The notes below the pieces were generated by a model. That model did no database searches and was not told where the DNA came from. It saw nothing but the letters and a program-made list of their open reading frames with translations. From a virus (taxonomy: Duplodnaviria; Heunggongvirae; Uroviricota; Caudoviricetes), in the IMG/VR virus record IMGVR_UViG_3300028666_000001, positions 1 to 64,000 of that record: a DNA stretch of 64,000 bases; one strand, 5' to 3'. The position numbers and the translations under genes were made by a program. Within the stretch, counting starts at the first letter, position 1; each line of letters begins with the position of its first letter. Shown piece after piece: positions 28,706-44,804 of the stretch.

Positions 28706-28977
28706 GCGTCGAACTTAAACCAACAGGTGAGAAGTGTGAAAAGTGTACAGAAGGTTATCTAGTTGAGCGTGTAAACAGCTTAACAAAAAATAGTTTTATT
28801 GGTTGTTCTACTTGGCCCGACTGTGCCTTTACAAAACGTGGTGGAGAGAATCCTACTCCTCCTAGAGTTAAGACTGAATGCTTTGATGTCTATGATTATG
28901 ACAATGATTGTCCAGATAATATGTGCTTTGGTGACTTTGATTATTGTGATGGTCCAGGCAGCAGTGGTTGGTATTGA
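28702..28977 (+). CDS. topoisomerase-type C4 zinc-ribbon protein
   Basis: CEKCTEGYLVERV..FIGCSTWPDC resembles topo I zinc ribbon. Confidence 0.45.
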   Translation: MSVELKPTGEKCEKCTEGYLVERVNSLTKNSFIGCSTWPDCAFTKRGGENPTPPRVKTECFDVYDYDNDCPDNMCFGDFDYCDGPGSSGWY

Positions 28978-29217
28978 CAATGAATGATAAAAATGCTATA
29001 CTTATCTTGTGTATAGTCCTGGGGATTTGTGGTCATCCCTTCTGGGCTATAATACTATATTTAATTTTAACTGATGGTCTATGAAAAGGCTGTGGTTAAT
29101 TAACATTGGTAGGTGCTACCGATGTGGACATATTTTAGAATGGAGTATTGGTTGGGGTACAAAGAATTGGGGCTGGTGGGGTCCTTGGTTCATTCACACA
29201 TATCCCACGATTAGAAC

Positions 29218-29601
29218 TTGTCACGAGTAAAGGAGATTCAAATGAGCTTGATACTAGATTATAATGACGACGATAAGATTCTGTTTAATGATAACACTGC
29301 TGTACGTCAAACTAAAGATAGTATGGATTTTCTTCGTATATTCATAACTGATCGTGGTGCTTCCATTGGTCGTTACTGTGTGCCAGGACGTATTGATATT
29401 TATGATTTTGATTGGGTACGTGGATCAACAGGTTTAGGAAGTCGCGTGGCTTTCTTTACAGATACTCATCTATCATTAGATAAAGCTATTAAACAGGTTA
29501 AACGAGATTTAAAAAAGAAGCATGTTAAAGAGCTGCTTGCTGCGGCAAAGCTTAAGTGTCCACGAAGTTATCTTGATCCTTTGCTAGAAGCACTTCGATA
29601 G
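29218..29601 (+). CDS. hypothetical protein
   Basis: AAGGAG RBS near 29230. Confidence 0.4.
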   Translation: MSRVKEIQMSLILDYNDDDKILFNDNTAVRQTKDSMDFLRIFITDRGASIGRYCVPGRIDIYDFDWVRGSTGLGSRVAFFTDTHLSLDKAIKQVKRDLKKKHVKELLAAAKLKCPRSYLDPLLEALR

Positions 29602-29609
29602 GAGATCAA

Positions 29610-29843
29610 ATGTTAAAACTTATCCAAAAGTATTGGTTCCAAATCTCATTGGCATTTACAATCATAAGCAGCTTAGCAACAGGTGGTTGGTATCTCAAAG
29701 GCAAGATTGATGCACTTACTGATACTGTGGCTGATACAAACAAATGGGTCCAGGATCATGATGATGATATTCAGACATTGCACGATGATACTCTAAAGCT
29801 CAAAGAAGATGAACGTCTTCGAGAAGCAGGACTGTTGAAATAA
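29610..29843 (+). CDS. hypothetical TM + coiled-coil protein
   Basis: one N-terminal TM. Confidence 0.35.
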   Translation: MLKLIQKYWFQISLAFTIISSLATGGWYLKGKIDALTDTVADTNKWVQDHDDDIQTLHDDTLKLKEDERLREAGLLK

Positions 29844-29844
29844 T

Positions 29845-29979
29845 ATGGGTCATAAACGTAATGACTTTGGTGAATTAGTTTGTACTTGTGGTCATGAGCC
29901 TTGGGACCATGTGTTTGCTGATGGCTGTTGCGTACTTAGAAAATGTGGCTGCGAGAAGTTTGTTCAGGCATATGAATGA
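29845..29979 (+). CDS. small Zn-knuckle protein lacking tail (CTCGHEPWDH..C..C)
   Basis: read from sequence, 44 aa. Confidence 0.35.
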   Translation: MGHKRNDFGELVCTCGHEPWDHVFADGCCVLRKCGCEKFVQAYE

Positions 29980-30122
29980 TAATCACTTTGGTTTGTGAGT
30001 GTGATCATCCTAACTGGATGCATACCTATGATATGTGGTGTAACTTCTGTCGTTGCAATATCTTTAAGGTTGACAATCTCAAGTCTTTAGAGTACACTTA
30101 TGGATCTACTGTATCCTTGTAA
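29976..30122 (+). CDS. DNLxYLE-tail family member (48 aa, not in track)
   Basis: read from sequence: CECDHPNWMH..CNFCRC..VDNLKSLEYT. Confidence 0.45.
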   Translation: MIITLVCECDHPNWMHTYDMWCNFCRCNIFKVDNLKSLEYTYGSTVSL

Positions 30123-30282
30123 GACGTGTGGACATGCCTACGAAGATCATCTCGTAGGATTAAGCTGTGCCTTTTGCTGGGCAGATGCAGGGTTTAATAG
30201 ATCATCTGTTATCCATAATATGTGTAAAAGGTTCATAGGGGATAACCTGAAGTACTTAGAGGAGAAACATGCTGAGTCCTGA
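30100..30282 (+). CDS. DNLxYLE-tail small Zn-knuckle protein
   Basis: CKTCGHAYEDH..CAFC; tail DNLKYLEEK. Confidence 0.65.
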   Translation: MDLLYPCKTCGHAYEDHLVGLSCAFCWADAGFNRSSVIHNMCKRFIGDNLKYLEEKHAES

Positions 30283-30490
30283 TTACCTTTGTACCTGTGG
30301 TCATAGAAACAAAATGCATGTATCTCTTGCAGATGCAAAGAAGTACCGTAATCATGAGGGCAGAATGTGCATTGCGTATAAAGATGCTATCTCTGTAGCT
30401 GAGGTTGTTTATCATAATAAAGAAGAGATCTGCAGCTGCAATGATTTTGTAGGAGATAACCTTAAGACATTGGAGAATTTGAGTGTCTGA
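30269..30490 (+). CDS. DNLxYLE-tail small Zn-knuckle protein
   Basis: CTCGHRNKMH..CSC; tail DNLKTLENL. Confidence 0.6.
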   Translation: MLSPDYLCTCGHRNKMHVSLADAKKYRNHEGRMCIAYKDAISVAEVVYHNKEEICSCNDFVGDNLKTLENLSV

Positions 30491-30713
30491 GTATTATCAT
30501 TATCCAAAAGTCAGGGGTGATGAGTATTGCCGTTTCTGTAAGCATCAAGCTTTCTTCCATATGACTACCCAGAATTTTGGTGCTCCTAATATGTCAGCAG
30601 TATGGAAGCAATGTGACTTTGCAGCTAGAAAGTGTTCCTGTCCAGGCTTTGGTGCAATAGATAACCTTCTATACTTGGAGATGTGTGCCGATGACAAACG
30701 TAGTTCATTGTAA
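30483..30713 (+). CDS. DNLxYLE-tail small Zn-knuckle protein
   Basis: CRFCKH..H..CSC; tail DNLLYLEMC. Confidence 0.6.
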   Translation: MSEYYHYPKVRGDEYCRFCKHQAFFHMTTQNFGAPNMSAVWKQCDFAARKCSCPGFGAIDNLLYLEMCADDKRSSL

Positions 30714-30951
30714 ATCAGGTAGACCATACGATATCTATATAGGTCGTCCATCTATGTGGGGTAATCCATATCAGATTGGTATTGATGGAACTAGAGAAGA
30801 AGTGATAGAGAAGTTTGAAGCATTCTATTTAATGGATGGTTGGATGCAAGCTCATATAGGTGAGTTGAAGGATAAAACTTTAGGATGTTGGTGTAAACCT
30901 CTAGCATGTCACGGAGATATACTAGTCAAGTACGCAGAGGCAAATAGCTAA
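30685..30951 (+). CDS. conserved hypothetical (CWCxP..CHGD motif protein)
   Basis: GCWCKPLACHGDIL C-terminal signature. Confidence 0.35.
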   Translation: MPMTNVVHCKSGRPYDIYIGRPSMWGNPYQIGIDGTREEVIEKFEAFYLMDGWMQAHIGELKDKTLGCWCKPLACHGDILVKYAEANS

Positions 30952-31052
30952 CAATACTGTTGTTAAAGTGCTTATCTATATTACTTATTAGTATATATTA
31001 TAGATCAGATACAGATGTCTCCTTTAACAACATTTACAAAAGGATCTTTAAC

Positions 31053-31622
31053 ATGGCACAAAGTAGAAAAGAATACCAGCGTGATTATAGAAAGAAACAT
31101 CCTCGTACAAAATATTTTAGTGATCTGTATCAAGAGCAGAAAAAAGAACGCTTGACTTATCAGCGCAATTATGATATAATTAATAAAGAGGCTATTGTGA
31201 GTAAACGTAGAGCACTGACCATGCATCAACATATTACAGGGGTTTCTAAATGTACCACTAAGTGGGCCATTAAGTGGAAGGTTGCCTATGAATCTTTTGC
31301 TAAACTTTTGGGTTGGTCCTATAATGATCCTGTCTATGTTCAGCTTTATAATACCTGGAGAGATTCAGGATATGAACCTCTTCTACGTCCCGTTGTAATG
31401 CGTGGTATAAAGAAAAATGGATTTGTCCAAGAGAATTTGCATTGGGATATTAGAAAGAACTTTTCTTGGTGGAATGAGGATGCTCAGATCTATGCTGAGG
31501 TAGAGAAAGAGACAGAAGACTTTCAACGAGAGCATAATCAACGTAGTAAAGAATGGCGTAAGAAGGTTAGACAAGATTTGAAAGCTAAACAAAAAGAGGC
31601 TAAGAAACGTCATGTCTATTAG
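31053..31622 (+). CDS. basic (K/R-rich) putative nucleic-acid-binding protein
   Basis: AAAAGGA RBS; QRDYRKKHPRTKYF N-terminus similar to basic N-termini of the HNH paralogs. Confidence 0.4.
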   Translation: MAQSRKEYQRDYRKKHPRTKYFSDLYQEQKKERLTYQRNYDIINKEAIVSKRRALTMHQHITGVSKCTTKWAIKWKVAYESFAKLLGWSYNDPVYVQLYNTWRDSGYEPLLRPVVMRGIKKNGFVQENLHWDIRKNFSWWNEDAQIYAEVEKETEDFQREHNQRSKEWRKKVRQDLKAKQKEAKKRHVY

Positions 31623-31956
31623 TTGCTGGTCTGATGGTTGGACAAGTACAGCTGGAGCTAAAGCTGTAGCTGAAGTTGGACATGCTGATTGCTCTGAAAG
31701 TTGGGGGATGGAGATGATGCATGTATTCCAATTAGAAGGGGGTCAGTATGCAGTTGTGCATGAGTCTGGTTGCTCTTGCTATGATTCAAATGATGCTGAT
31801 ATTGAATTGCTTCCATTTGCTAGAGCCTTTGAAAAGTATATTCGGTATAAGAAAGATAATGGTCTAGAGTTTACTAATCTAGAGTATTTAGAATTTAAAT
31901 CACAGGAGAAAGAAAATGAGCTACTTAATCGAAACAAGTCTACCCCCTCTGCATAG
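31612..31956 (+). CDS. DNLxYLE-tail family, long form
   Basis: tail TNLEYLEFK. Confidence 0.5.
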   Translation: MSISCWSDGWTSTAGAKAVAEVGHADCSESWGMEMMHVFQLEGGQYAVVHESGCSCYDSNDADIELLPFARAFEKYIRYKKDNGLEFTNLEYLEFKSQEKENELLNRNKSTPSA

Positions 31957-32560
31957 AGATTGGGATATCAATGATATGGTTGGTGCTGACAACCTTGAAG
32001 AGGTTCAGCAGAATTCAGTTAAGTATTTGAATAACCCAGATGTAATTACTAGAGGCAATAACCTCTATATTTATTCTGGTCAGAATGGAACAGGTAAGAC
32101 TCGAACAGCTTATTGGCTTTTATATAAACTTCATGAACCACGTCTAGGTCCTGAAGGTAGAGCAGTTATATATCCCATAGCTGCTATTTCCTATGGGGAA
32201 TACATTACCATTTGTGAGGATAAGTTTTCTGCAGATGCTAAGGCAGCTCGTCAAACTGTTATGACAGTTCCTATTCTTTTGCTGGATGATGTATCAGCAG
32301 CCTTTGGCTGTGGCAATCTGCATACGGATAAGAGACACTTGCTGTTGCTTATGAAGTATCGTCGAGAGCATTTGTTAACTACTATCATTACTAGTAACCT
32401 AACTCCTGGAGCTTTTGATAAGCTCTATGGTCCTACAGCTTCTTCTAAGGCCCTGGAGAATTTCAGCTATATCGAAGTAAGGGGTGGAGATGTTCGTCAG
32501 GCTATTTACCCAGATCAGTTAGCTGTACCAGAAGATGAAGATGCTGAGGCTTGCCGATGA
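31916..32560 (+). CDS. P-loop ATPase (DnaC/IstB-like helicase-loader?)
   Basis: Walker A GQNGTGKTRTA, Walker B ILLLDDVS. Confidence 0.45.
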   Translation: MSYLIETSLPPLHRDWDINDMVGADNLEEVQQNSVKYLNNPDVITRGNNLYIYSGQNGTGKTRTAYWLLYKLHEPRLGPEGRAVIYPIAAISYGEYITICEDKFSADAKAARQTVMTVPILLLDDVSAAFGCGNLHTDKRHLLLLMKYRREHLLTTIITSNLTPGAFDKLYGPTASSKALENFSYIEVRGGDVRQAIYPDQLAVPEDEDAEACR

Positions 32561-33048
32561 TGAATACTCTGTGGGGATTTGTAGGAATGATCTTTGGTAT
32601 GTTGGTAGCTGTTTTCTGTGGTATTAATCTCCTTAGTTATTTTCAGAAAAAGAATGAGATGAATAAACTTGTAGACTTAAAGGATTGCCCATTTAAATTC
32701 CGTTTAGATCTGAGTGACTATAGAAGCTATGCTATCTTTGATCTAGGTAACAATGCTGAGCTGTATTGCGAATATCATTACGGAGTTCGTAGTGATGGCC
32801 TTTATGGGGTAAGTAGTATAGAACTTAAGGGACTCAATGGAAGCAGTGGTAGAAGTATTGAGTTAAATATAGGTCAAAGTATTTTTCCAATTATCTCAAA
32901 GCTTGATGATTTTGAATCCTGGGCTAAGATGAAAGCTTTTGACTATGCATGGGATCATGAGTTTAGTGCTTGTTGGCAGCGTACTCTCAAGAGTATAGAT
33001 AATCTTCGCTTTCTTGAATCAAAGCTCAAAGATAAGAAGAAGAAATGA
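32551..33048 (+). CDS. membrane protein with DNLxYLE-type C-terminal tail
   Basis: N-terminal TM; tail DNLRFLESK. Confidence 0.5.
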   Translation: MPMMNTLWGFVGMIFGMLVAVFCGINLLSYFQKKNEMNKLVDLKDCPFKFRLDLSDYRSYAIFDLGNNAELYCEYHYGVRSDGLYGVSSIELKGLNGSSGRSIELNIGQSIFPIISKLDDFESWAKMKAFDYAWDHEFSACWQRTLKSIDNLRFLESKLKDKKKK

Positions 33049-33299
33049 ACGCTGCTTGGGGTTGGGACCCAGAAGTAATTAAGAAGTATTTTGAAGGGCC
33101 AAAGATCAAATACAAATATGTTATTACAGATGATAAGGATGAGTTCCTTGCTTCAATGAATAGGATTGCTGAGAAACACTTTGCCGAGACTAAAGACAAT
33201 CTCAGGTATCTAGAGCACTTGGATAGGATTAAAGCAATAGAAGAAGGTGCTGAGCTGCGTGATGTGTTTACTTGGCTAAAGGATTTTGATGATAAATAA
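33045..33299 (+). CDS. DNLxYLE-motif protein (no Zn knuckle)
   Basis: DNLRYLEHL internal. Confidence 0.5.
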   Translation: MNAAWGWDPEVIKKYFEGPKIKYKYVITDDKDEFLASMNRIAEKHFAETKDNLRYLEHLDRIKAIEEGAELRDVFTWLKDFDDK

Positions 33300-33498
33300 A
33301 GATTTCCCATGCAAGACTTGTCATCATGCAGCTGATAAGCATTACTCTAATATATCAGATGGTGAGACTATTTGTGTAAATTGTGTTGATCAACGTATAT
33401 CATATGATGGTGAGCAGTTCCATGAGTTCATTGGTGATAATTTAAAATATATGGAACTTCTAAATAGAAGGGAGCAGATTAAAAATGAGCAAATGTAA
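33286..33498 (+). CDS. DNLxYLE-tail small Zn-knuckle protein
   Basis: CKTCHHAADKH..CVNC; tail DNLKYMELL. Confidence 0.6.
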   Translation: MMINKDFPCKTCHHAADKHYSNISDGETICVNCVDQRISYDGEQFHEFIGDNLKYMELLNRREQIKNEQM

Positions 33499-33787
33499 TG
33501 GATGATCTTGTTTGGGGAACCATTAAATATAAAGGTCCACCTCTTCAATATGAGTGGTTTCATTTTTGTTCTGATGGCACATTGATTTGGAATTGTCTAT
33601 GGTCTAATTGTGAGAACTGTAAAAAACTAGAGGAATATTACAATGAGCAAGCCTAAAGTAAAAGATCGCTCAGGCTTTAGCCATGATTGCCCATTCTGTG
33701 GGTATCACATTGTAGTCTGTTGTTCCCCTGAGTATTTGAAATGTATCTATTGCTGTAGACGTTGGAAATTAGAAAAGGATGAGAACA

Positions 33788-34504
33788 ATGAGCAAACCCC
33801 AGAAAGATAGTCTTGGTGATAGGATGAAAGGGTATGAAAACGTCACTAGGACGTTTTTAACTGGTAGGATGCCTTGTATCATTAGGATTGATGGAAAAGC
33901 CTTCCACACCTTAACTAAGGGCCTTAAGAAGCCATTTGATAAGGACTTTGCAGATGCTATGTTAGCTACAACCAGAGATCTATGTGATGAGATTCAGGGA
34001 GCTGCTTTAGCCTATTGGCAATCAGATGAGATATCGATTCTTTTAATTGATTATTTAAGGTTAACTTCTCAGTCATGGTTTGATAAGAATATTCAGAAGA
34101 TGGTATCAGTTAGTGCCAGCATTGCGACAGCTAGTTTCAATAGTTGGTTCCAATTCCCCGATACCTGCAACTCAAGAGCTACTTTTGATAGTAGGGTCTT
34201 TACTTTACCTAGAGAAGAGGTTTGTAACTATTTTTTATGGAGACAACAAGATGCTACTAGAAATAGTATCAATTCTGTTGGTCAAGCTTATTTCTCCCAT
34301 AAGCAATTACATGGTAAAAATACAGATCAAGTTCAAGATATGCTTTTTAAAGAGAAAGGGATCAATTGGAACGATCTACCAGTTATTGAGAAAAGGGGTG
34401 CTTGTATAGTGAAGCAGGAAGGTGGTTGGATAGTAGACAGAGAAATCCCTATCTTTAGTCAAGATAGAGAATATGTAAATAAGTTTGTTAATATAGGAGA
34501 TTAA
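33788..34504 (+). CDS. Thg1-like protein (tRNA-His guanylyltransferase family, 3'-5' polymerase; tRNA 5'-end repair)
   Basis: CIIRIDGKAFHTL / KPFDKDFADAM / YWQSDEISILL / FLWRQQDA align with Thg1 VVVRLDGRNFHRF / KPNDSRALQLM / YGQSDEYSFVF / YLSWRQADC. Confidence 0.85.
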   Translation: MSKPQKDSLGDRMKGYENVTRTFLTGRMPCIIRIDGKAFHTLTKGLKKPFDKDFADAMLATTRDLCDEIQGAALAYWQSDEISILLIDYLRLTSQSWFDKNIQKMVSVSASIATASFNSWFQFPDTCNSRATFDSRVFTLPREEVCNYFLWRQQDATRNSINSVGQAYFSHKQLHGKNTDQVQDMLFKEKGINWNDLPVIEKRGACIVKQEGGWIVDREIPIFSQDREYVNKFVNIGD

Positions 34505-34642
34505 AAATGATTACATTGAAGTTTATATTTAGACCAGATTGGATGTGTAGACCACATTTTAATATTTGCAAACGTCATATATCAATTGACCTTGGAATTA
34601 TTGACCTGTCAATTCAATGGAGGGAATAGCTAATATTAGGAC

Positions 34643-34671
34643 TTGACAGACTAAGCTTTAGGGGGTATACT
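34643..34671 (+). promoter_or_regulatory. sigma70-type promoter TTGACA-N17-TATACT (leaderless ATG 34678, HNH gene)
   Basis: exact hexamers. Confidence 0.5.
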
Positions 34672-34677
34672 ATTATT

Positions 34678-35148
34678 ATGAAGTCTAAAGCAAAAGAATT
34701 ATACGATAAACAGTATTATCAAAGAACTAAAGAGCAACGTAAACAGCATAGAGATTTACATCGTGCTGAGCATCTTATTTATGATAAAGAGCGATATGTT
34801 AGATTGAAGAATGAGTTTGCTAAAAGAGCTAGAACATTAGAGGTTCGTTTTAAATCGGGAGTTTCAAAAGCTAAGAAGATGAAGCGAGAATGGCAAATAT
34901 CTTTTGTTGAATATAAGCAATTAATTAAATTGGGTTGCTATTATTGTGGTGTGGACTTGACAGATACAGCAGGAACAAATTTGGATAGGGTAGATAATAA
35001 GAAAGGCTATACACTGAATAATGTTTTACCTGCATGTGGCCCCTGTAATGAAAGTAGATTTGATCATTTCACAGTGCCAGAGTGGGTTGCTATGATTCGA
35101 GCTTTGCAGGTCTATAGACATAACAAGGAGAATGGCTATGTCCGTTGA
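34678..35148 (+). CDS. HNH homing-endonuclease-like protein
   Basis: CYYCGVDL..NLDRVDNKKGYTLNNVLPACGPCNESR canonical HNH. Confidence 0.65.
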   Translation: MKSKAKELYDKQYYQRTKEQRKQHRDLHRAEHLIYDKERYVRLKNEFAKRARTLEVRFKSGVSKAKKMKREWQISFVEYKQLIKLGCYYCGVDLTDTAGTNLDRVDNKKGYTLNNVLPACGPCNESRFDHFTVPEWVAMIRALQVYRHNKENGYVR

Positions 35149-36178
35149 AAGAAAGTTAGCATCAATTCAAAAAGTCTTAGATGTCCAGCCTATTCCTGGG
35201 GCTGATGCTATTGAATGTCTTACTGTTCTTGGTTGGAAGGTTGTTAGCAAGAAAGGTGAATTCAAGGTTGGAGACTTGGTTGTTTACTTTGAAGTTGATT
35301 CGATTCTCAAAGAATCTCCTGATGTTGAGTTCCTGCGTAAGTCAGGCTTTCGTATCAAAACGATACGATTACGAGGTCAAGTTAGTCAGGGTCTTTGTTT
35401 GCCACTATCCATCTTGGCAGGTGAGTCTGAGTTGCCACATGAGCCACATGCTGAGGGTGATGATGTCACTGAGCTGCTTGGAGTAGTTAAGTATGAACCA
35501 TATGTGCCAGCTCAGTTGGCTGGTCTTGCCAAAGGTAACTTCCCAGAGTTCTTGCATAAGACAGATGAGACTCGTATCCAGGCTGTGCCAGCAGTATTAT
35601 ACAGACACCAAAACAAAAAGTTTTATGTGACAGAGAAGGTTGACGGGTCCAGCATGACTGTCTATTTCAGACGCAATGAGCACTTCGCTGATGGAGAGTT
35701 TGGCGTTTGCTCTCGTAATATAGATATGAAAGAAGAAGGTGGTACATCGTTCTGGAAAGTAGCTAGAGAGCTTGACCTTGAGAACAAGCTGCGTAGCCTT
35801 AATCGTAACATTGCGCTGCAGGGTGAGTTGCTTGGTCCAGGTGTCCAGGGCAATAAGTATAAGCTAGAGAAACTTGGCTACTATGTGTTCAACGTTTTTG
35901 ATATTGATACTGGTCTTCATTTTAATTATGATGACTTTGTTAAGATGATAATTTATTTGCAATTGCAGCCTGTTCCTTTGGTTGATGATTCATTTATATT
36001 ACCTAACACTATAGATGAATTGGTCCAATACTCTAAAGGTAAGAGTGCAATGAATAAAGATTCTCATCGTGAGGGTATTGTGTTGCGTCCTTTGATTGGT
36101 GAGTATGATGAAGATCTGCGTGGTCGCTTAAGTTTCAAGTGCATTAACCCAGATTTCCTGTTAAAATATGATGCGTGA
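35138..36178 (+). CDS. ATP-dependent RNA ligase (Rnl2/Rnl5 superfamily) with N-terminal tRNA-binding-type OB domain
   Basis: motif I TEKVDGSS, motif IV REGIVLRPL, motif V LSFKCINPDF; N-term IPGADAIECLTVLG..GDLVVYFEVDSIL resembles Myf/EMAP-II tRNA-binding fold. Confidence 0.75.
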   Translation: MSVERKLASIQKVLDVQPIPGADAIECLTVLGWKVVSKKGEFKVGDLVVYFEVDSILKESPDVEFLRKSGFRIKTIRLRGQVSQGLCLPLSILAGESELPHEPHAEGDDVTELLGVVKYEPYVPAQLAGLAKGNFPEFLHKTDETRIQAVPAVLYRHQNKKFYVTEKVDGSSMTVYFRRNEHFADGEFGVCSRNIDMKEEGGTSFWKVARELDLENKLRSLNRNIALQGELLGPGVQGNKYKLEKLGYYVFNVFDIDTGLHFNYDDFVKMIIYLQLQPVPLVDDSFILPNTIDELVQYSKGKSAMNKDSHREGIVLRPLIGEYDEDLRGRLSFKCINPDFLLKYDA

Positions 36179-36353
36179 TGAAGTTGATTGCAGGTGTGGT
36201 CATTTAGAAGATATGCATATATTGGACATAGAAGGGCAACTTGATGGGACATATTGTTCAAATTGTTACATGTTTGGCTTTGAATGTTCTGAATATAGAA
36301 TGGACTCTTTAAAATTGTTGGAGTATAGATATGAGCAAAAAGAAAAGTTGTAA
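36168..36353 (+). CDS. DNLxYLE-tail small Zn-knuckle protein
   Basis: CRCGHLEDMH..CSNC; tail DSLKLLEYR. Confidence 0.55.
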   Translation: MMRDEVDCRCGHLEDMHILDIEGQLDGTYCSNCYMFGFECSEYRMDSLKLLEYRYEQKEKL

Positions 36354-36580
36354 ATGCCAGTTTTGTAAAGACTACGCATGGCTCAATAATGAGTTGCTTC
36401 CAGCTGTCCCTAAGAAGATGAGGAAGCGAGTTGATGCTTTCTTTTCTAATGCTTGGAATGCACAAGAGGATCTGTCCTATAAAGCAGCAATTTTAGATGG
36501 CTCATGGCCTGATGCTGTTCAGATATTGGGATGGCACTTAGAGAGTGCTAAATTAAAGGTAGCTAAAGAGGAGGCATTAT

Positions 36581-36745
36581 ATGACCCCAAAAACGAAATT
36601 TAATACAACACCCTGCGCTACTTGTAAGCATCCTAAAGGGATTCATAAACCAGCCTGTTGGTCTTATGGCTTGGTTGAACCAAAGTGCAGAAAGCATTGT
36701 TTGAGGTTTGTGAAATTAAATGAACAGCCTAGTAAGAAGAGTTAA
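36581..36745 (+). CDS. small Zn-knuckle protein lacking tail (CATCKHPKGIH..C..C)
   Basis: read from sequence, about 54 aa. Confidence 0.3.
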   Translation: MTPKTKFNTTPCATCKHPKGIHKPACWSYGLVEPKCRKHCLRFVKLNEQPSKKS

Positions 36746-36992
36746 GAAGATACATCCTCAAAAGGGTGACTTTGTTATTGTAACCCTGAAGGGTGATCCT
36801 TCCGATTATCAAATGCAGATAATACGGAATAAGTTTACCAATATGCCATTCCTAACAGGTGTGTATGTGCTGTTCATTAATGATATGATCATCATTCGAG
36901 AACAGAAAGCCAATAAAGGTAAACATGCAGTTTACCTAAACAATTTAGAATACCTAGAATACGTAAGTAAGAAAAAAGGAGAAGATAAATGA
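36720..36992 (+). CDS. DNLxYLE-tail family, no Zn knuckle
   Basis: tail NNLEYLEYV. Confidence 0.5.
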   Translation: MNSLVRRVKKIHPQKGDFVIVTLKGDPSDYQMQIIRNKFTNMPFLTGVYVLFINDMIIIREQKANKGKHAVYLNNLEYLEYVSKKKGEDK

Positions 36993-37170
36993 GTTTATTT
37001 GGTGGAGATAAGACACCTGAAGTAGAAAAGCCTGATATTTGGGAAGAGGTTGGAGAGGATACAGATATCTATCGTACACGTACTCCTGAAGGTTGGTTAA
37101 TTATGGATAATCAATATCATAGAGGCGGGTTAACATATGTGCCAGATGCAGATCATAAATGGAGGCTAGG

Positions 37171-37821
37171 ATGAACATAATTCCCACAGTCATAGAAAAG
37201 AATCCAGGTGCAGGTAGCATGGTGTCGTATGATCTGTTGTCACGTCTCATGCAGGATAGGATCTTGTTTGTTGGTGGTAATCATGGAGCTATCAGCCTTG
37301 ATGATGCTAACATTCTAATTGCCCAGCTTCTGTATCTGGAGTCTATTGATCCAGGCAAGCTGATTCAGATGTATATCAATTCTCCAGGTGGAGAAGTTTC
37401 CGCTGGATTGGCTATTCTTGATACAATGCGCCACATTACAAGTCCAATTCAAACTATCTGCATGGGTATGGCTATGAGCTTTGGAGCTGTGCTGCTTAGC
37501 TCAGGAGCTAAAGGCAAACGTTTTGCATTGCCTAATGCTCGTATCATGATCCATCAACCATTGATCAGCGGTGGTGGCATATCTGGTCAGGCTACAGATA
37601 TTGCTATTGAAGCTAAAGAAATGGTTCATTGCAAAGAGTCTCTTACTAAAATCATGGCTAAAAACTGTGGTCAAGAATATGAGAAGGTACTTGCTGATTG
37701 TGAACGCAATTTCTACATGTCAGCCGAGGAAGCAAAAGCGTATGGTTTGATTGATTCGGTTATTTACCCAGCAGAAGAAGGTAAGTCAAAGACCAAAGGT
37801 TATTGGGACGACGGTAAATAA
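37171..37821 (+). CDS. clpP: ClpP-family serine peptidase (S14), copy 1
   Basis: INSPGGEV, GMAMSFGAVLLSSGAKGKRFALPNARIMIHQP closely parallels E. coli ClpP [32 protein letters not shown]; GGAGG RBS. Confidence 0.8.
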   Translation: MNIIPTVIEKNPGAGSMVSYDLLSRLMQDRILFVGGNHGAISLDDANILIAQLLYLESIDPGKLIQMYINSPGGEVSAGLAILDTMRHITSPIQTICMGMAMSFGAVLLSSGAKGKRFALPNARIMIHQPLISGGGISGQATDIAIEAKEMVHCKESLTKIMAKNCGQEYEKVLADCERNFYMSAEEAKAYGLIDSVIYPAEEGKSKTKGYWDDGK

Positions 37822-37824
37822 GTA

Positions 37825-37853
37825 TTGACAGGACGTTGAATATCTGTTATAAT
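37825..37853 (+). promoter_or_regulatory. perfect consensus sigma70 promoter TTGACA-N17-TATAAT driving an ORF-free region
   Basis: exact consensus hexamers and spacing. Confidence 0.6.
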
Positions 37854-37859
37854 TAATTA

Positions 37860-38125
37860 GGTGGGTTGAGGCCCAATAAAAGAATAAGCCTGGATGCTCA
37901 TAAGAGTAGCCTAACGCATCCCATCAAATATGGAAACTAGGGGTTCAGCGGGATCTCTCCCTAGGAGTACGAAGTAAAGACGAGTCCCGCACAATTTAAG
38001 ATCATAGTGACACGAACGGTGACGTGGTAAAAAACATAATCAGACGTTAGCCAGTTCGATTCTGGGGTGTCCTCTGGGAGAGTGAAGTCTGATTCAGCTG
38101 GTTCAAGTCCAGCATATGATCGCAA
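37860..38125 (+). ncRNA. candidate structured RNA / tRNA-like element downstream of consensus promoter
   Basis: no ORF >35 aa for about 370 nt; hairpins GCTGG-TTCAAGT-CCAGC (38097-38113) and CCAG-TTCGATT-CTGG (38051-38065) are T-arm-like; 7-bp helix GATCATA(38000-06)/TATGATC(38115-21); hairpin CTAGGG..CCCTAG at 37928-37956. Confidence 0.3.
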
Positions 38126-38592
38126 ATTTGTGAGTGGATTAAATGAGTGACATGAGGTTCCAATTGGATCATATATAATCCAAGATGCCTACACTTCTCA
38201 CAAAGCCCTTTAAAGGAGATGCAAATGAAAATAATTATTGTTACAACCGTTGTTATTTTTTGGTATGCAGTAGCTGTTTGGTTAACCTATAAGATTGCTC
38301 AGTGGTTTGAGCGTAACTCATAAGGAGAGTAGAATGCAATTAGAATGTGAAACGTTTCTATTAGCTGCAGGTAGTACATACAATGAAGTAGTTAAAAGAT
38401 CAGGTCGTTTACGGATTTCTACAAGTGGAGCAATTAAGGCTTGTTCAGTTATTGGAATAACTGAAGGATTTCCTCTATTTATAAATGAATCCACTAATTA
38501 TTTAGATGTAAAAAAAGGAAGTATACTTCGTATTATAAATAGAGATGTGAGTGTTAATGTTTATTTAAGTTATGAGGGGAAAGGAAAATAAT

Positions 38593-38829
38593 ATGGCTGA
38601 TGAAATTCAATTAGAAGGTGTAGTGAGCAGCAATATATCTGCAATCGGTTTTGAAGCAAAGTCAGGAACCATGCAGGTGAAGTTCAACAATGGTGGATTG
38701 TATGAAACAGTTGGTGCTTCCCAGGCCGATTATGATACCTTCAAACTTGCTAAGAGCAAAGGTGTTCACTTCAATAAGGTTTTGAAGAGAGCATTTGCTT
38801 GGAGTAAAGTAGAGAAGAAAGGAGTATAA
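38593..38829 (+). CDS. KTSC-domain-like protein
   Basis: ISAIGFEAKSGTMQVKFNNGGLYETVGASQADYDTFKLAKSKGVHFNKVLKR resembles the KTSC domain. Confidence 0.4.
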   Translation: MADEIQLEGVVSSNISAIGFEAKSGTMQVKFNNGGLYETVGASQADYDTFKLAKSKGVHFNKVLKRAFAWSKVEKKGV

Positions 38830-38951
38830 AATGGAAACATTACTGTTGGGAAGTGTATTGTTACTTCTAGCCGTTGTATTACGTTTGTATCGTAATAAAC
38901 ATCAAGTAGAACAAGCTCGTCGCAAACATAAAAAGCTACCTCGTTAATAGA

Positions 38952-39134
38952 ATGGAGTCGTTTGTTTGTAGAACCTGTGGTCATATTCTTGGTCATGGCT
39001 TGAATTTTGCAGAGACAGGTAGATATGATTCTGTATGTCATTGTGGTTGCACTGATTGGATTCCATCAGGTAATTTACAGTATTTGGAATGGTGTTTGGA
39101 TCATAAGGTGAATAATGTACAACAGTCGTTGTAG
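38952..39134 (+). CDS. DNLxYLE-tail small Zn-knuckle protein
   Basis: CRTCGHILGH..CHCGC; tail GNLQYLEWC. Confidence 0.6.
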   Translation: MESFVCRTCGHILGHGLNFAETGRYDSVCHCGCTDWIPSGNLQYLEWCLDHKVNNVQQSL

Positions 39135-39306
39135 GAATTGCTTTTGTCTTCATTTTAATAAAGACACGAGCTTAAATTACCCAGAGAAATGTTATTGTCC
39201 AGAAGCATTTAAAGCCATACTAAGATGTATCAATTATGTGCCAAAAGAGAACTTAGAGTATTTAGAATGGGTACTAGAACATGAAACGAAATTGGAAAGT
39301 AGATAA
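39115..39306 (+). CDS. DNLxYLE-tail small Zn-knuckle protein
   Basis: CRNCFCLH..CYC; tail ENLEYLEWV. Confidence 0.6.
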   Translation: MYNSRCRNCFCLHFNKDTSLNYPEKCYCPEAFKAILRCINYVPKENLEYLEWVLEHETKLESR

Positions 39307-39538
39307 TACTGCTTTAATTGGTGAGTTTAGGTTCTGGCATGGTGAACCTAGTAGACTTCCTGCTCCCTGGGCACATCGATGTTTTTATAAGCATCCATGG
39401 AACCAAACAGTAGAAGGTAGATGTCCAGCAGCTAATCAGGTTAGAGGTAATCGTTTTACTGATCTTTGTGTAATTCAGAAGCTTGATAATCTGTTATACT
39501 TAGAATACAAGTTGGATGAAAAGGAAAAAATAAAATGA
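39281..39538 (+). CDS. DNLxYLE-tail family member
   Basis: tail DNLLYLEYK. Confidence 0.55.
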   Translation: MKRNWKVDNTALIGEFRFWHGEPSRLPAPWAHRCFYKHPWNQTVEGRCPAANQVRGNRFTDLCVIQKLDNLLYLEYKLDEKEKIK

Positions 39539-39650
39539 GTGACGATTGTAAGCACGAATGGGTACATACTTGTAAGGTTCCTGGTCAGGGACTTTGCTAC
39601 TGGTGCGATAAATGTAAATACTGTGGTGTTAAACCAATAGAAACATTCAA

Positions 39651-40040
39651 ATGACTGATATTATAAATGATTTAAAAAAGCTTGAATCAGAACATGAGAA
39701 GCAGCTACTTGAAATACGCCTGAAGATTCGTGATATTGATAGTATACCCAAAGCTAAGGCTTTGGTTGGGCGATACTTTAGATATTCAGGGGGCTTTGGA
39801 TTCTTTCATACTGCTAAAGTAAAGTCCTATATTTATAAACGTGTTATTGGTGTTGATGTGGATAGAGTTATTACTGATAGTTTCCAGGTTGAGAGAAGTG
39901 GAAAGATTGAGATCGCTTATGGACAGTCAGATTATGTAGATCATTTTACCAATAAATTCTATACAGAGATTACTGAAAGACAATATTTTGCAGCATACAA
40001 AAAGATGCTTAAATCTGTTCAGGAACATGGTAAACGTTAA
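39651..40040 (+). CDS. hypothetical protein
   Basis: 129 aa ORF. Confidence 0.4.
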   Translation: MTDIINDLKKLESEHEKQLLEIRLKIRDIDSIPKAKALVGRYFRYSGGFGFFHTAKVKSYIYKRVIGVDVDRVITDSFQVERSGKIEIAYGQSDYVDHFTNKFYTEITERQYFAAYKKMLKSVQEHGKR

Positions 40041-40130
40041 TGTTTAGATTAGAGCAGTTCATGTGGTGGTTGATTGGTAAGCAAATGAACTTTGTTTGGT
40101 GGTTGAAGGATAGAAGGCTGAGGAGTTATT

Positions 40131-40502
40131 GTGAAACTCTACGTAGACGATCTTAGGATTTGTCCAGAGGGTTGGACATTAGCCCGTACAAACACAGAAG
40201 CTATTAGACTTTTAGCTACTGGATATGTTACAGAGATATCTATAGATCATGATATTTGTGTGCCTAATGCTCATCTTATAAATCAGACTGTCCGTAAACG
40301 TCTTGCCATTGGAGAAGAGACATATCAGCCTGTGGCTTATTATATTGCTGCTATGCCAAAGCCCAATCTGATTAAAGTAAATTTCCATACAGCTAATCCA
40401 GAGGGAGCAGCAAAGATGAAGAGTATCCTTGATGCAGTAGGTATTGAATCTACCTATACCCCAGGCAGTTATCTTATTGACTTAGGAGATACAGAGATAT
40501 GA
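40131..40502 (+). CDS. hypothetical protein (GTG start per track)
   Basis: 123 aa ORF. Confidence 0.35.
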   Translation: MKLYVDDLRICPEGWTLARTNTEAIRLLATGYVTEISIDHDICVPNAHLINQTVRKRLAIGEETYQPVAYYIAAMPKPNLIKVNFHTANPEGAAKMKSILDAVGIESTYTPGSYLIDLGDTEI

Positions 40503-40888
40503 GAGAGATTGAGTTTCGAGCTTGGAATAAAAAGACCCAGAAGATGCTTCATGCTCCTGGTCCTTGTGAGAGTACTCTAGGACCTACTATGACGTTTGAT
40601 GGTCGCACATATATAAATGGTGTATATCAAGATCTGATTTACATGACATGGAGTGGTTTAATTGATAAAGAAGCTGAGAAGATCTTTGAAGGTGATATCC
40701 TTGGTGGGTTTTGGGAAGGTGGCTATATCGCATATTGCGATTTGTGCAAGAGCCTTCAATACCATTCAATGGATATATGTTTTGCCTGTGAGGGTGATGT
40801 TCACTGGTATGAGCTGGTTGAAGCAGATGGAACGCTTGAGATTTTGGGGAATGTGTATGAGAATCCAGAACTAATGGAGATAAGATGA
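40499..40888 (+). CDS. YopX-family phage protein
   Basis: N-terminal MREIEFRAWNKKTQKM typical of YopX domain. Confidence 0.5.
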   Translation: MREIEFRAWNKKTQKMLHAPGPCESTLGPTMTFDGRTYINGVYQDLIYMTWSGLIDKEAEKIFEGDILGGFWEGGYIAYCDLCKSLQYHSMDICFACEGDVHWYELVEADGTLEILGNVYENPELMEIR

Positions 40889-41109
40889 AAAAAATAGTTT
40901 TGTTTGGATTGCTGCTTGGCTTTATTGGTTGTGCTAAAGAATCTCATGAAGTTACTTGTATTGCAGATTTCTCTATAATTCCTTATCACACTCACACACA
41001 AGGTCCAGTATTTACTGTGACAGTGAATGATCAGACTTATCTTACCTTTGTAGATGCACAAGGTAAGAAAACGATCTTCGATAAGCATTATATGTGTGAG
41101 ATCAATTGA
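40885..41109 (+). CDS. lipoprotein
   Basis: MKKIVLFGLLLGFIGC lipobox. Confidence 0.45.
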   Translation: MKKIVLFGLLLGFIGCAKESHEVTCIADFSIIPYHTHTQGPVFTVTVNDQTYLTFVDAQGKKTIFDKHYMCEIN

Positions 41110-41534
41110 AGATAGAAGTGTATTCAGATGGCTCAGGCATGACAAAGGCCACACCAGCAGGGTATGGCTTTGTGGTCACTAAAAATTCCGTTAAGGTACA
41201 TGAAGGGTCAGGATATTTACCATTGGGCACTAACAATGACGCTGAGCTTCAGGGTGCGATTGAGGGGCTTAATTCTGTTCATGATGTCTTTGGTGAGTTG
41301 GAAAAGGATGATGAAGTAATCTTGGTGTCCGATTCCCAGATCATTTTGAATTGGGCTGATGGCACTAATCAATTTAAACAGGAAGAGAAGATGGATAAAT
41401 ACTTTGCCCTACGTAATCTAATGGGAGATCTAAAGGCAAAGACTCGTTGGGTCCCAGGTCATAGTGGAGATCTACATAACGAGCGTTGTGATAAACTTGC
41501 TAATGCAGCAAGACTTGGAGGCGTAAATGGATAA
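41106..41534 (+). CDS. rnhA: ribonuclease H
   Basis: VYSDGSG, TNNDAELQGAIEGL, VSDSQ, HSGDLHNERCDKLA: DEDD catalytic pattern of RNase HI. Confidence 0.8.
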   Translation: MKIEVYSDGSGMTKATPAGYGFVVTKNSVKVHEGSGYLPLGTNNDAELQGAIEGLNSVHDVFGELEKDDEVILVSDSQIILNWADGTNQFKQEEKMDKYFALRNLMGDLKAKTRWVPGHSGDLHNERCDKLANAARLGGVNG

Positions 41535-41687
41535 TTTTGTTATTACAACTGGTAGTGGTTCATACACTGGCCCTGTTACATTGGTCGCATGGATATTTAT
41601 TCATCCATGGATGACATTATTTATTTGTCTTTCCATTGCTGAAGCATTTGAAGCATGGGGTAAAGCATTTGGTCGGAGGAAGAAATA

Positions 41688-42308
41688 ATGAAACGAGTAC
41701 TTAGCAGCGGTTTTATAAAAGTACACCAGATTCTTGGAACTGAGAAAGAACGCCTAGATACCATTACTTGTCTTGGCTATCTTGGTGATAAAGCAATAGA
41801 ATACATCCTCTTTAATAACCCAGCGGTGCTTGATTACGTTGAGTTTAGATTTGAAGTCAAGGCTCCTCTGCTTACCCTTCTAGACTTCCAGGATGCCCAT
41901 TTAGGCACTATAAGTAAGCCAGAGGACTCTGAGCATCAAGTAGCCTATTTACCCTCCCAATTCTATTCCAAGGATGGTTTAACGTACAAGATTATGGACG
42001 TTAAGAGCTGTAATGCTCACTATACTAAACTTAACAACTTCTTTGAATGGTCCTTCAATTTTTATAATAAATTGGTCAAAGAGGGAATGTGTCAGGAGCA
42101 AGCTAAGCTTGTGCTGCCTCAAGGTGTATTTGTCACCTTTATGTGGAATATCACAGCCAAAGATCTAATCGAATTCATTGAACAGCATTATAATGACTCA
42201 CCAGAAATCTATGGATATTGTTCTACATTTGTGTTATATCTTGAAGAACATTTGCCACTTACTATGAGATATCTGAAGGCTCACGAATGGCAACACATAA
42301 GCCTGTAA
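41688..42308 (+). CDS. hypothetical protein
   Basis: 206 aa ORF. Confidence 0.4.
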   Translation: MKRVLSSGFIKVHQILGTEKERLDTITCLGYLGDKAIEYILFNNPAVLDYVEFRFEVKAPLLTLLDFQDAHLGTISKPEDSEHQVAYLPSQFYSKDGLTYKIMDVKSCNAHYTKLNNFFEWSFNFYNKLVKEGMCQEQAKLVLPQGVFVTFMWNITAKDLIEFIEQHYNDSPEIYGYCSTFVLYLEEHLPLTMRYLKAHEWQHISL

Positions 42309-44067: not shown

Positions 44068-44386
44068 GATTTGTTCCTGTGATCATGAAGAGGTATCTCA
44101 TAAGCTCAGAGATAAGAGCGTGGATGAGATCCTTAATGCTATGCGTCAGGATCGAACTATTGAGGCCAAATATAGTCCAGGCCAAATGGAAGCATTAGGA
44201 TTCTTTGTACCACAAGATAATAATAAGTATTATACCTATGGTGACATAAAAGATGCTATAGCTCGAATCAGAGATACTTATAGTCCATGTCAGAAGCGGT
44301 TTTGTCCTTGTAGAAAGTTTGAGGCAGACAATCTTAAGACCTTGGAGAAAATGTGTGAGCGTAAAACCAGTCAGATTGTACATTGA
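44057..44386 (+). CDS. DNLxYLE-tail Zn-knuckle protein
   Basis: CSCDHEEVSH..CPC; tail DNLKTLEKM. Confidence 0.55.
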   Translation: MVDKICSCDHEEVSHKLRDKSVDEILNAMRQDRTIEAKYSPGQMEALGFFVPQDNNKYYTYGDIKDAIARIRDTYSPCQKRFCPCRKFEADNLKTLEKMCERKTSQIVH

Positions 44387-44804
44387 TCCTATCCTTCATA
44401 AGCCCTGTGAGTTGATTACAGACTTCTCAGGACTAGATAACCTTGCTGGTGATATGATTGAAACAATGTTATCTTATCGAGGTATTGGACTTGCTGCCAA
44501 TCAGATTGGGGTGAACAAAAATCTCGCTGCTCTTTATTTAGAAGATAAGACTAAAATTATTCTAGTTGCGAATATTATAATAAAGGGGTATACTAAAGAG
44601 ACAGACATTCAGAAAGAAGGGTGTTTGAGTTGTCCTGGTGTATCTGTTCCAATGACAAGATGTTTAGGGATTGAAATAGAAGCACAACGTTTGAATGGAC
44701 AGAAAATTAATTTAAAGTTTGAAGGATTTGATGCAAGGATTTTGCAGCACGAGTATGATCATTTGAATGGAAAACTTATTATAAACAATTTAATGAAATT
44801 ATGA
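44355..44804 (+). CDS. def: peptide deformylase
   Basis: GIGLAANQIG, EGCLSCPG, HEYDHLNG = PDF motifs 1-3; likely GTG start 44355 in-frame with track ORF 44319. Confidence 0.85.
   Translation: MSVKPVRLYIDPILHKPCELITDFSGLDNLAGDMIETMLSYRGIGLAANQIGVNKNLAALYLEDKTKIILVANIIIKGYTKETDIQKEGCLSCPGVSVPMTRCLGIEIEAQRLNGQKINLKFEGFDARILQHEYDHLNGKLIINNLMKL

Follow-up and report, generated by a model that had tools for sequence, protein, structure and literature searches.

A conserved, structured noncoding RNA locus with a tRNA-like domain behind a consensus promoter in a large uncultured phage

Results

The DNA analyzed here (the window) comprises 64,000 nucleotides (nt) of a virus of the Caudoviricetes, positions 1 to 64,000 of IMG/VR record IMGVR_UViG_3300028666_000001. 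This one-strand segment of a large uncultured phage has a G+C content of ~39%; peat and soil assemblies contain an identical 192-kb contig as well as several fragments. Behind a ClpP gene (37159-37821), positions 37822-38224 form a noncoding RNA locus, a chain of structured RNA modules rather than an empty spacer. The locus is genuine and conserved. The modules are a 5' domain, a hairpin/pseudoknot module (PK1), a 123-nt tRNA-like domain (TLS), and a 3' hairpin domain, followed by a gene for a small peptide (Table 1). The TLS, which shares its architecture with RNA2 of phage T5, is the main subject of this report.

The promoter of the locus begins 3 nt past the ClpP stop codon, and transcription is predicted to start at ~37860. 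A first-pass annotation, made from the letters alone, had singled out this element as the best promoter in the window, and it is indeed the sole perfect match to TTGACA-N17-TATAAT when both strands of the 64 kb are scanned. A promoter resembling AAGTATTGACA...TATAAT lies at the matching locus in contigs L060, L061, L063, L064, L153, and L158, and all the ClpP relatives that were fetched (82 to 95% identical in amino acid [aa] sequence) keep a strong promoter either after ClpP or after an acyl-carrier gene (ACP) inserted behind ClpP. The same annotation took the region behind the promoter to be free of open reading frames (ORFs). Positions 37822-38333 are in fact the window's largest gap without an ATG-started ORF of at least 45 aa on the plus strand, but the 32-aa ORF at 38225, which had been listed as a minor candidate, counts as a gene, so the noncoding stretch is 37822-38224 (~400 nt). 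The start codon of this ORF is 6 nt downstream of a Shine-Dalgarno (SD) sequence. Because the ORF is called at the equivalent place in sister contigs L052-L057 and in L158, and because homologous hydrophobic peptides are found 3' of the RNA region in L064, L067, and L158, it is a real gene, the first of the operon that lies behind the leader.

Table 1. Features of the RNA locus and RNA-repair genes in the window
Feature	Coordinates	Strand	Description and basis
Sigma-70-type promoter	37825-37853	+	TTGACA-N17-TATAAT; extended -10 TG at 37845-46; score 12/12
5' domain	37860-37925	+	Predicted three helices: GGUGGG/CCCAUC (closing), AGGC/GCCU, and GGAUGC/GCAUCC or minimum-free-energy (MFE) variant
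Hairpin/pseudoknot module PK1	37930-37997	+	Comparative analysis and fold
PK1 helix S1	37937-43 / 37958-64	+	CTAGGGG/TCCCTAG
PK1 candidate helix S2	37948-53 / 37985-90	+	GCGGGA/UCCCGC; compatible with S1 only as an H-type pseudoknot
TLS	38000-38122	+	123 nt; four-way junction; hand model, RNAalifold, relatives
TLS acceptor-like stem	38000-06 / 38115-21	+	GAUCAUA/UAUGAUC
TLS D-arm	38011-38026	+	Stem CACG/CGUG (4 bp); loop AACGGUGA
TLS long arm, in place of anticodon arm	38038-38094	+	8 bp, 38038-45 / 38087-94; 3 more bp, 38047-49 / 38083-85
TLS T-arm-like hairpin 1, caps long arm	38051-54 / 38062-65	+	CCAG-UUCGAUU-CUGG; motif scan
TLS GG-containing mini-hairpin, 3' side of long-arm tip	38070-72 / 38077-79	+	UCC-UCUG-GGA; RNAalifold
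TLS T-arm 2	38097-38113	+	GCUGG-UUCAAGU-CCAGC; motif scan; 5/5 Watson-Crick pairs; adjoins 3' acceptor strand
3' hairpin domain	38127-38203	+	UGUGAGUG.../...CUUCUCACA closes inner UUGGAU/AUCCAA hairpin; predicted fold
SD sequence and 32-aa hydrophobic (membrane) peptide gene	38213-18; 38225-38323	+	AAGGAG; ORF list
Rnl1-like ligase	1286-2416		
HD-Pnk	5272-6474		HD + P-loop kinase
HAD_SAK_2	25022-25555		
Metallophosphoesterase	25883-26440		
Thg1-like protein	33779-34504		
OB-fold RNA ligase	35132-36178		Rnl5-like
Macro domain protein	49929-50531		

The T-arm hairpin, the second T-loop-like hairpin (38051-38065), and the 7-base-pair (bp) long-range helix that the first-pass annotation had pointed out are all present, and in the TLS they belong to a single domain. 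Several traits of a tRNA are found in it: a 7-bp acceptor on a 5-bp T-stem, a 7-nt UUCRANY loop, and a D-arm with G18 and G19, all of which are kept in the related contigs L064/L065. Position 8 is a U8-like U, the D-loop AACGGUGA fits A14-R15-Y16-G18-G19-Y20-A21, and the variable region is 2 nt. What a tRNA should have and the TLS lacks is a 5-bp anticodon stem with a 7-nt loop (U33, R37); an arm of 8 + 3 bp that ends in a three-way junction is found instead. In our model, the tip of this long arm, composed of the second T-arm and a GG segment, looks like a second "elbow." The acceptor can alternatively be read as a G-1:C73 pair and a 7-bp stem with a G.A pair at 7:66, in which case the G-1:C73 pair is genome encoded. 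A G-1:C73 pair is a hallmark of tRNA-His acceptor ends and of the chemistry of Thg1, a 3'-5' polymerase.

The ClpP relatives were fetched one by one to reach their RNA regions; contigs with an identical ClpP have an identical RNA region and are uninformative for comparison. In L064/L065, we found an 88.9% identical copy of window positions 37987-38129, placed between an upstream module that is a different pseudoknot and downstream sequence unrelated to the window's. All of the modeled TLS pairs (28/28) are kept in this copy. The D-stem pair 38012-38025 is A-U in the window and C-G in L064/L065, the outermost pair of the long arm (38038-38094) is A-U in the window and G-C in L064/L065, and one G-C pair of the T-arm 2 stem has become G-U in L064, a change compatible only with the plus strand. 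RNAalifold, used without the hand model, gives the same four-way junction, to which it adds 3 long-arm pairs and the mini-hairpin. Moreover, the window and L064 differ by a 1-nt indel within the TLS, which excludes conserved coding on either strand. The arrangement of the T-arms is also nonrandom: the two are separated by 47 nt, both are on the transcribed strand, and both fall within a single acceptor-closed domain, which is kept with compensatory changes. Taken alone, without relatives, the sequence would be weak evidence for an RNA locus.

Some candidate readings were rejected during this comparison. An RNA read from the minus strand would have A.C in place of the G-U pairs seen in helix S1 of PK1 and, in L064, in T-arm 2. 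A pairing of GACAC with GUGUC (38009-13 / 38067-71), which would build a nested tRNA from hairpin 1, is broken in L064, where the D-stem is kept. A statistic of T-arm enrichment was discarded as well, the window holding 2 T-arm-like hairpins against a mean of 3.2 in Markov simulations.

The TLS is neither a decoding tRNA nor a tmRNA, because a long arm with a second T-arm hairpin replaces the anticodon arm. ARAGORN, used with default settings, detected no tRNA or tmRNA gene in the window, and its intron mode (introns up to 120 nt) at default stringency returned nothing at the locus. Relaxed and organellar runs, which the first-pass annotation had recommended, yielded only low-stringency artefacts: a poor tRNA-Pro with a 107-nt intron, whose 5' strand at 37923 is absent from L064, and, in mitochondrial mode, an mtRNA-Leu. 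The recommended Rfam scan did not produce a relevant structured-RNA match either. At Rfam 15 gathering thresholds there were 0 matches in the window; over 37700-38450, the tRNA model (RF00005) had no match at E ≤ 10, and the only matches of any model at this level were two of chance quality. Among the homologous modules of L061, L063, L064, and L065, Rfam recognized nothing but a tRNA in L061. Thus, of the suggestion that the locus encodes a phage tRNA or a tRNA-like RNA, the second half holds, in that a structured, conserved tRNA-like RNA lies behind the promoter, while the decoding tRNA is contradicted by ARAGORN, by Rfam, and by the lack of an anticodon stem-loop. That no canonical 76-nt cloverleaf could be folded was also confirmed.

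Searches for more distant homologues were negative. A blastn ("distant") search of 37700-38400 against 50,697 phage records gave no match, and a DNA pattern covering both T-arms found no homologue. Scanning IMG/VR for two T-loops 25 to 50 nt apart returned 37 loci, none of them homologous by blastn or nhmmer, whereas the 20-mer of the inner T-arm returned just an ordinary tRNA fragment and a three-block TLS pattern in GTDB genomes gave two chance matches. The RNA region is absent from the IMG/VR ClpP relatives L001/L002, examined by synteny; no relatives of the 85-aa protein encoded downstream turned up in IMG/VR; and a metagenome scan with ClpP returned mostly bacterial ClpP. A literature search found no description of this RNA, nor any function for T5 RNA2.

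The resemblance to T5 RNA2 emerged from covariance models, one (R1) built from the three TLS sequences only and a reciprocal one (R2) built from T5 RNA2. R1 scores its own members at 150 to 158 bits. When it was run over T5 positions 27000-42000, a 15-kb tRNA region that holds 25 tRNAs and 8 stable RNAs and was chosen independently of any T-loop pattern, the single match at E ≤ 10 was rna2, over its full length, with 24 bits and E = 3.6e-5. R1 also gave weak full-length matches to a few of the 37 two-T-loop IMG/VR loci, including L037. The L037 element is T5 rna2 (T5s06, NC_005859 32959-33083), 125 nt long and annotated as "tRNA-like stable RNA with unknown functions." This element is present in 425 Demerecviridae genomes, mostly unannotated. 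Its fold is itself supported by comparison: in seven diverse copies, 98% of cells are paired, there are 8 covarying pairs, and 0/500 shuffles equal the observed score.

The two RNAs are alike in plan. At 125 nt, T5 RNA2 is close in size to the 123-nt TLS; like the TLS, it has an 8-bp closing acceptor-like stem that abuts a T-arm, a 4-bp D-arm with a GG loop, and a long interrupted arm in place of the anticodon arm, the tip of which has a second T-arm hairpin on its 5' side and a GG-containing single strand on its 3' side. The loop of the long-arm hairpin is UUCGAUU in both, the T5 RNA2 hairpin being GCUCG-UUCGAUU-CGAGU. They differ in their connections: the D-arm and the long arm of T5 RNA2 are joined directly and its variable region is 4 nt, whereas the TLS has an 11-nt A-rich linker at the former place and 2 nt at the latter. 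The Rfam tRNA model gives T5 RNA2 (the STG2 copy, L037) 12.5 bits, E = 5.3, and does not match the TLS, and there is no sequence similarity between the two by BLAST or nhmmer. As modeled, the TLS and T5 RNA2 share an architecture; common descent is possible but unproven, because the reciprocal R2 match is weak and a T4 tRNA-Ser scores higher.

Some features of T5 RNA2 were noted along the way. Copies are found at L037 3891-4014, in L048, L050, and L159-L163, and at L164 5960-6084 (T5 rna2). In several records the element is overlapped by a "hypothetical protein" coding sequence, and in Enterobacter phage KKP_3711 half of it is called tRNA-Arg(ccg). The 5' strand CAUUCU can alternatively pair with an internal AGAAUG behind the first T-arm, an alternative fold that is not kept in KKP_3711.

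Other phage stable RNAs are more remote. T4 species 1 RNA (rnaC, AF158101 70908-71046) and T5 RNA1 are ~140 nt long with oversized other arms, and they are co-transcribed and processed with other RNAs. In rnaC, a canonical T-arm (CCGGG-UUCGAAU-CCCGG) adjoins an acceptor-like closing stem, as in the TLS. Unlike the TLS, these RNAs have a single T-loop, a different arm layout, and a place in tRNA clusters, and R1 has no match at E ≤ 10 in the T4 region (L157). The tRNA-like domain of tmRNA and YrlA are, like the TLS, nondecoding and keep the acceptor/T-arm half of tRNA. RNAs of the YrlA type are linked to RNA repair operons. A TROVE protein with a tRNA-like partner is found in some jumbo phages (PMC7824862). 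In YrlA, however, the ends come out of the arm opposite a closed acceptor-like stem, while the ends of the TLS are at the acceptor stem, and no TROVE domain was found among window ORFs of at least 150 aa. From tmRNA, the TLS differs in having no G3:U70 (3:70 is U-A) and no tag frame.

Unusual tRNA-like arrangements were also seen in other contigs. At L026 4219-4340, in an unrelated 48-kb viral contig, a third double-T-arm tRNA-like element of ~122 nt begins 8 nt after a tRNA-Glu. Its T-hairpin arm abuts the terminal T-arm in the variable-arm position, a hairpin of 6 bp with a 3-nt loop occupies the anticodon position, and there is no Rfam match. Phage tRNAs at L018 902-1021 (= L034, L038), L021 3638-3765, and L020 3273-3427, 4498-4634, and 5548-5710 have inserts of 46 to 84 nt at ~37/38; the L018 and L021 inserts fold in a mini-tRNA-like way, with a closing stem, a GGUUCGAUUCC T-arm by the 3' strand, and a D-like segment, as a tRNA-like unit nested in an anticodon loop. 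In L023/L041, L025, L033, and L049, tRNAs ending in CCA are followed within 5 to 30 nt by a second T-arm (GGUUCAAGUCC) and a 3' strand ending in ACCA or GCCA. Each second T-arm with its 3' strand looks like an acceptor/T-arm minihelix; in one of these elements, the third pair is G.U.

Comparison of the relatives revealed that the locus is a slot for exchangeable cassettes. After the pseudoknot, the window and L064/L065 have the TLS, L067 and L147-150 an unrelated module of ~100 nt ("X"), and L061/L062 and L063 a module of ~210 nt ("Y") that ends in X, followed in L061/L062 by an intron-bearing tRNA. In L153 and L158 this position is taken by two other domains whose closing stems begin with GATC, and L060 has no RNA module, the promoter being followed directly by the SD sequence and gene. 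Behind C-rich 3' strands of helices, an ACAAUUU linker recurs between modules. Such swapping is more readily explained by RNA cargo that functions independently behind a strong early promoter than by a fixed cis-regulator, and by analogy the placement may be likened to that of the tRNAs and stable RNAs of T4 and T5. It also leaves room for selfish or neutral cassettes.

The tRNA in L061 5241-5338 (also in L062) is a true tRNA in the same slot, downstream of ClpP/ACP, with an Rfam score of 42.8 bits that is above threshold. In it, 42 nt replace the 17-nt anticodon arm and form a readable anticodon stem with a 26-nt insert, whereas the TLS has no anticodon loop. ARAGORN in intron mode (-i) calls a 26-nt intron at ~36-38; default ARAGORN misses the gene. 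A short intron at the canonical position is unusual in a phage with bacterial-type promoters and SD sites.

Module Y/X (L061 5017-5230, L063 5165-5391, L067 898-1014, L147 3830-3935, and L158 ~985-1095) has no Rfam match. It contains GAUUCGA(G/A)AAC, a hairpin of the CUCCC-ACAAUUC-GGGAG type, and GAUGC(A/G)G(C/U)GGG...CCUGC; in L061 and L067 it can be read as an SD sequence and a mini-ORF, MQRVEPAL. The cassettes that follow the pseudoknot start and end with the palindrome GATC, as part of the closing stem, and are preceded by ACAA(A)TTT (window 37991-38006 and 38115-38129, L064 4822-4839, L153 ~3958-4060, and L158 ~902-985). In the window the flanks of the cassette, CAATTT and CAAATTT, resemble a duplicated target and could be punctuation for recombination or processing.

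Of the flanking modules, PK1 is the best supported by comparison. The module (37930-37998) is 92.5% identical in L061/L062 and is also found in L153 and L158. The first-pass annotation had placed a 6-bp hairpin at 37928-37956; the hairpin exists, but those coordinates are off by ~9 nt, and the helix in question is S1. In S1, both partners have changed in 4/7 pairs, with 100% of cells paired; no more than 2/500 shuffles reached the covariation score or the percentage paired seen here, and 7/500 reached the count of covarying pairs. Helix S2 is invariant in all four sequences compared, and the nested MFE structure of PK1 uses S2, not S1. The two helices together could form an H-type pseudoknot in which the pairing of S2 is predicted. 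The purine-rich loop at 37965-84 (20 nt) is nearly invariant, with a single A-to-C change in L158, and the module trails off into ACAAUUU at 37991-97. Exact and degenerate DNA patterns of PK1 retrieved no homologues.

The outer modules are predicted folds. For the 5' domain, RNAfold gives -20.1 kcal/mol with z = -2.24; identical sister contigs are the only others to carry this domain, the 5' domains of L153 and L158 being different. The corresponding values for the 3' hairpin domain are -19.3 kcal/mol and z = -1.5, with no comparative support among relatives and no terminator-like T-run behind it. The motifs ACAATTT, CAGCGGG, and AAGATGC show no enrichment elsewhere in the window.

Genes for RNA repair are dense in the window (Table 1), while ARAGORN detects no tRNA gene in the same 64 kb. 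Such kits in phages have been interpreted as a counter to host defenses that cleave tRNA (PMC7824862), and phage tRNAs neutralize several tRNA-targeting defenses (PMC10264068, PMC11555353, PMC11464382). A mimic of tRNA shape is biologically plausible in this setting, which we take as context and not as evidence of function. In L063, the OB-fold RNA ligase gene (780-2891) encodes 703 aa as opposed to ~345 aa and includes a LAGLIDADG_2 domain, and it looks like a case of intein or homing-endonuclease insertion. The window also contains a second, divergent ClpP-family gene (51199-51834), a peptide deformylase gene (44319-44804), and, 3' of the metallophosphoesterase gene, a 208-nt stretch (26441-26648) without an ATG-started ORF of at least 45 aa that ends in a TTGACA-like box.

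Discussion

On balance, we think it somewhat probable that the TLS is a tRNA mimic of the T5 RNA2 type that is excised from an early transcript by tRNA-processing enzymes. In this model, the consensus early promoter would transcribe a leader of ~365 nt made up of independently evolving modules and then, without a terminator, the small-peptide operon. Host RNase P would cut at ~37999/38000, and trimming of the 3' end would release the TLS; the AU-rich ACAAUUU linkers may be cut too. The product would be a stable RNA of ~123 nt, unable to decode. It would keep those parts by which tRNA is recognized in processing and at the elbow, namely, an acceptor stacked on a T-arm, a U8-like base, a D-loop with GG, and a UUCAAGU T-loop. 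The acceptor/T-arm/elbow half of tRNA is what RNase P, the CCA-adding enzyme, and other shape-readers recognize. Once released, the TLS could act by mimicry, occupying a protein that recognizes the shape of tRNA. In view of the co-encoded Rnl1-like and Rnl5-like ligases and the HD-Pnk, HAD_SAK_2, Thg1-like, and Macro proteins, a partner that takes part in a conflict over tRNA damage and repair would be the most plausible; our confidence in any particular binding partner is much lower than in the identity and processing of the RNA.

Several observations weigh against this interpretation. With respect to structure, the TLS encodes no CCA, an extra base follows G9 before the D-stem (two beyond the canonical number if the acceptor is 38000-06), and the 11-nt A-rich linker between the D-arm and the long arm departs from tRNA geometry. 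Only two distinct TLS sequences are available, and the covariation between them consists of two double substitutions, which 52/500 column shuffles matched. The RNAfold check proposed in the first-pass annotation does predict structured folds, yet their energies are unremarkable against shuffles (z only -1.0 to -2.2), and the hand model of the TLS lies 6 kcal/mol above the MFE. The closest nonidentical relative, L158, whose ClpP is 95% identical, has PK1 and lacks the TLS, which is therefore dispensable. The reciprocal comparison with T5 is weak: R2 gives the L064 TLS only 17.8 bits (E = 0.015) and the window TLS 10.7 bits (E = 1.4), and a class II tRNA-Ser of T4 scores higher, at 21.2 bits, although the TLS is the sole R2 match in the 64-kb window. 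T5 RNA2 lies within an array of tRNA genes, while the TLS lies outside any tRNA cluster, in an operon leader behind a pseudoknot. Finally, a terminator scan found none between the promoter, the RNA region, and the operon genes, and a purely cis role is therefore possible.

Such a role is the main alternative. The modules may be a cis-acting 5' leader of the small-peptide operon that controls mRNA stability, processing, or translation without giving rise to a free functional small RNA, a possibility that we take seriously but consider doubtful. The TLS might, for example, be an RNase P signal that sets a new 5' end, and the pseudoknots might block decay that depends on the 5' end or affect RNA polymerase in the manner of the put elements of phage HK022. 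Besides the uninterrupted run from promoter through RNA to genes, this explanation would account for the position of the L064 TLS, which ends just ~11 nt before the SD sequence, for pseudoknot modules that begin ~5 to 15 nt from the predicted start site in L061 and L064, and for the AU-rich ACAAUUU linker behind every pseudoknot. A cis-regulator, however, would normally covary with its gene and hold its register. The TLS and the SD sequence are separated by ~11 nt in L064 and by ~90 nt in the window, phages with ClpP proteins 82 to 95% identical carry unrelated cassettes in place of the TLS, and the L060 operon has the same promoter and no RNA module. The first-pass annotation had foreseen that the region might turn out to be simply the 5' untranslated region (UTR) of the gene downstream. 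It does physically lead the operon, but the exchange of modules between close relatives and their absence from L060 argue against an ordinary cis-regulatory UTR.

It is also conceivable, but quite improbable in our estimation, that the TLS is a nonfunctional remnant or a selfish cassette, that is, tRNA-gene debris (the two T-arms being fragments) or a tRNA-derived mobile insert with GATC stems and ACAATTT-like flanks in a recombination hot spot. The locus is indeed such a hot spot, with cassettes exchanged at the conserved ACAATTT linker and four cassette types that begin and end with GATC; an ordinary phage tRNA in L154 contains the inner segment GTTAGCCAGTTCGATTCTGG unchanged in its variable-loop/T-arm part, and the TLS is missing in most relatives. 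Against this reading, both double substitutions relative to L064 restore pairing and no substitution breaks a helix. The TLS remains 89% identical where the adjoining modules on both sides have been replaced, which indicates purifying selection on the folded RNA, and the same unusual plan is kept with covariation in T5 RNA2.

A decoding tRNA is still harder to sustain. The long arm would then be a large protein-spliced intron, removed by a nuclease and resealed by the phage RNA ligases. The phage does encode two RNA ligases and an end-healing enzyme, and intron-bearing tRNAs occur at this locus in L061 and also in L018, L021, and L020 (ARAGORN -i). We nevertheless regard this as highly improbable: intron-mode ARAGORN is empty at its default setting and in the relaxed setting offers only the poor tRNA-Pro with a strand that L064 does not conserve, none of the 5-bp segments of the long arm is followed by a U33-NNN-R37 loop, the linkers are of noncanonical length, and the Rfam tRNA model is without a match at E ≤ 10. 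A tmRNA-like RNA or a short protein-coding region, which might be suggested by the superficially tmRNA-like company of a tRNA-like domain, a pseudoknot, and a neighboring ClpP, by a weak Rfam permuted-tmRNA match (12 bits, 38135-38281), and by a possible GCA-started 13-codon frame after the pseudoknot, has next to no chance of being correct and is already contradicted. ARAGORN finds no tmRNA; the Rfam match falls far short of the gathering score of 47 bits and overlaps the real peptide gene; a G3:U70 pair is missing from the acceptor; in L064 an indel disrupts the candidate tag frame, which there meets a stop; and the 1-nt indel in the TLS excludes a conserved ORF on either strand.

Excision of a T5 RNA2-type mimic thus remains the explanation that we favor. 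A broader proposal, which we put forward as a speculation and consider unlikely as it stands, is that the TLS, T5 RNA2, and the L026 element belong to a widespread, unannotated group of "double-elbow" tRNA mimics that act in trans in a tRNA-centered arms race. Their common plan would be an acceptor/T-arm minihelix with a second T-loop/GG elbow and no anticodon, and they might serve as decoys for immune nucleases or sensors that recognize tRNA shape or as partners of the phage Thg1-like polymerase and RNA ligases.

To our knowledge, decades of cataloguing have assigned no function to the tRNA-like stable RNAs of phages, of which T4 species 1 and T5 RNA1 and RNA2 are examples. Rfam does not include them, and tRNA finders miss them. 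These RNAs are themselves long known; what is new here is a T5 RNA2-type RNA that forms part of a modular early leader. The T5 RNA2 plan recurs in an unrelated, uncultured peat and soil phage rich in RNA-repair enzymes, where the TLS evolves under structural constraint as one of several exchangeable cassettes in an early "RNA slot" for which strong transcription is predicted. The recurrence, the constraint, and the exchange of cassettes together offer a comparative handle on the old question of phage stable RNAs, and T5, with RNA2 present in more than 400 genomes and mostly unannotated or misannotated, offers a tractable model for function. If these RNAs are tRNA decoys or repair cofactors, they would add an RNA layer to phage counter-defense; if they are not, the locus would still be a clean example of modular noncoding RNA exchange.

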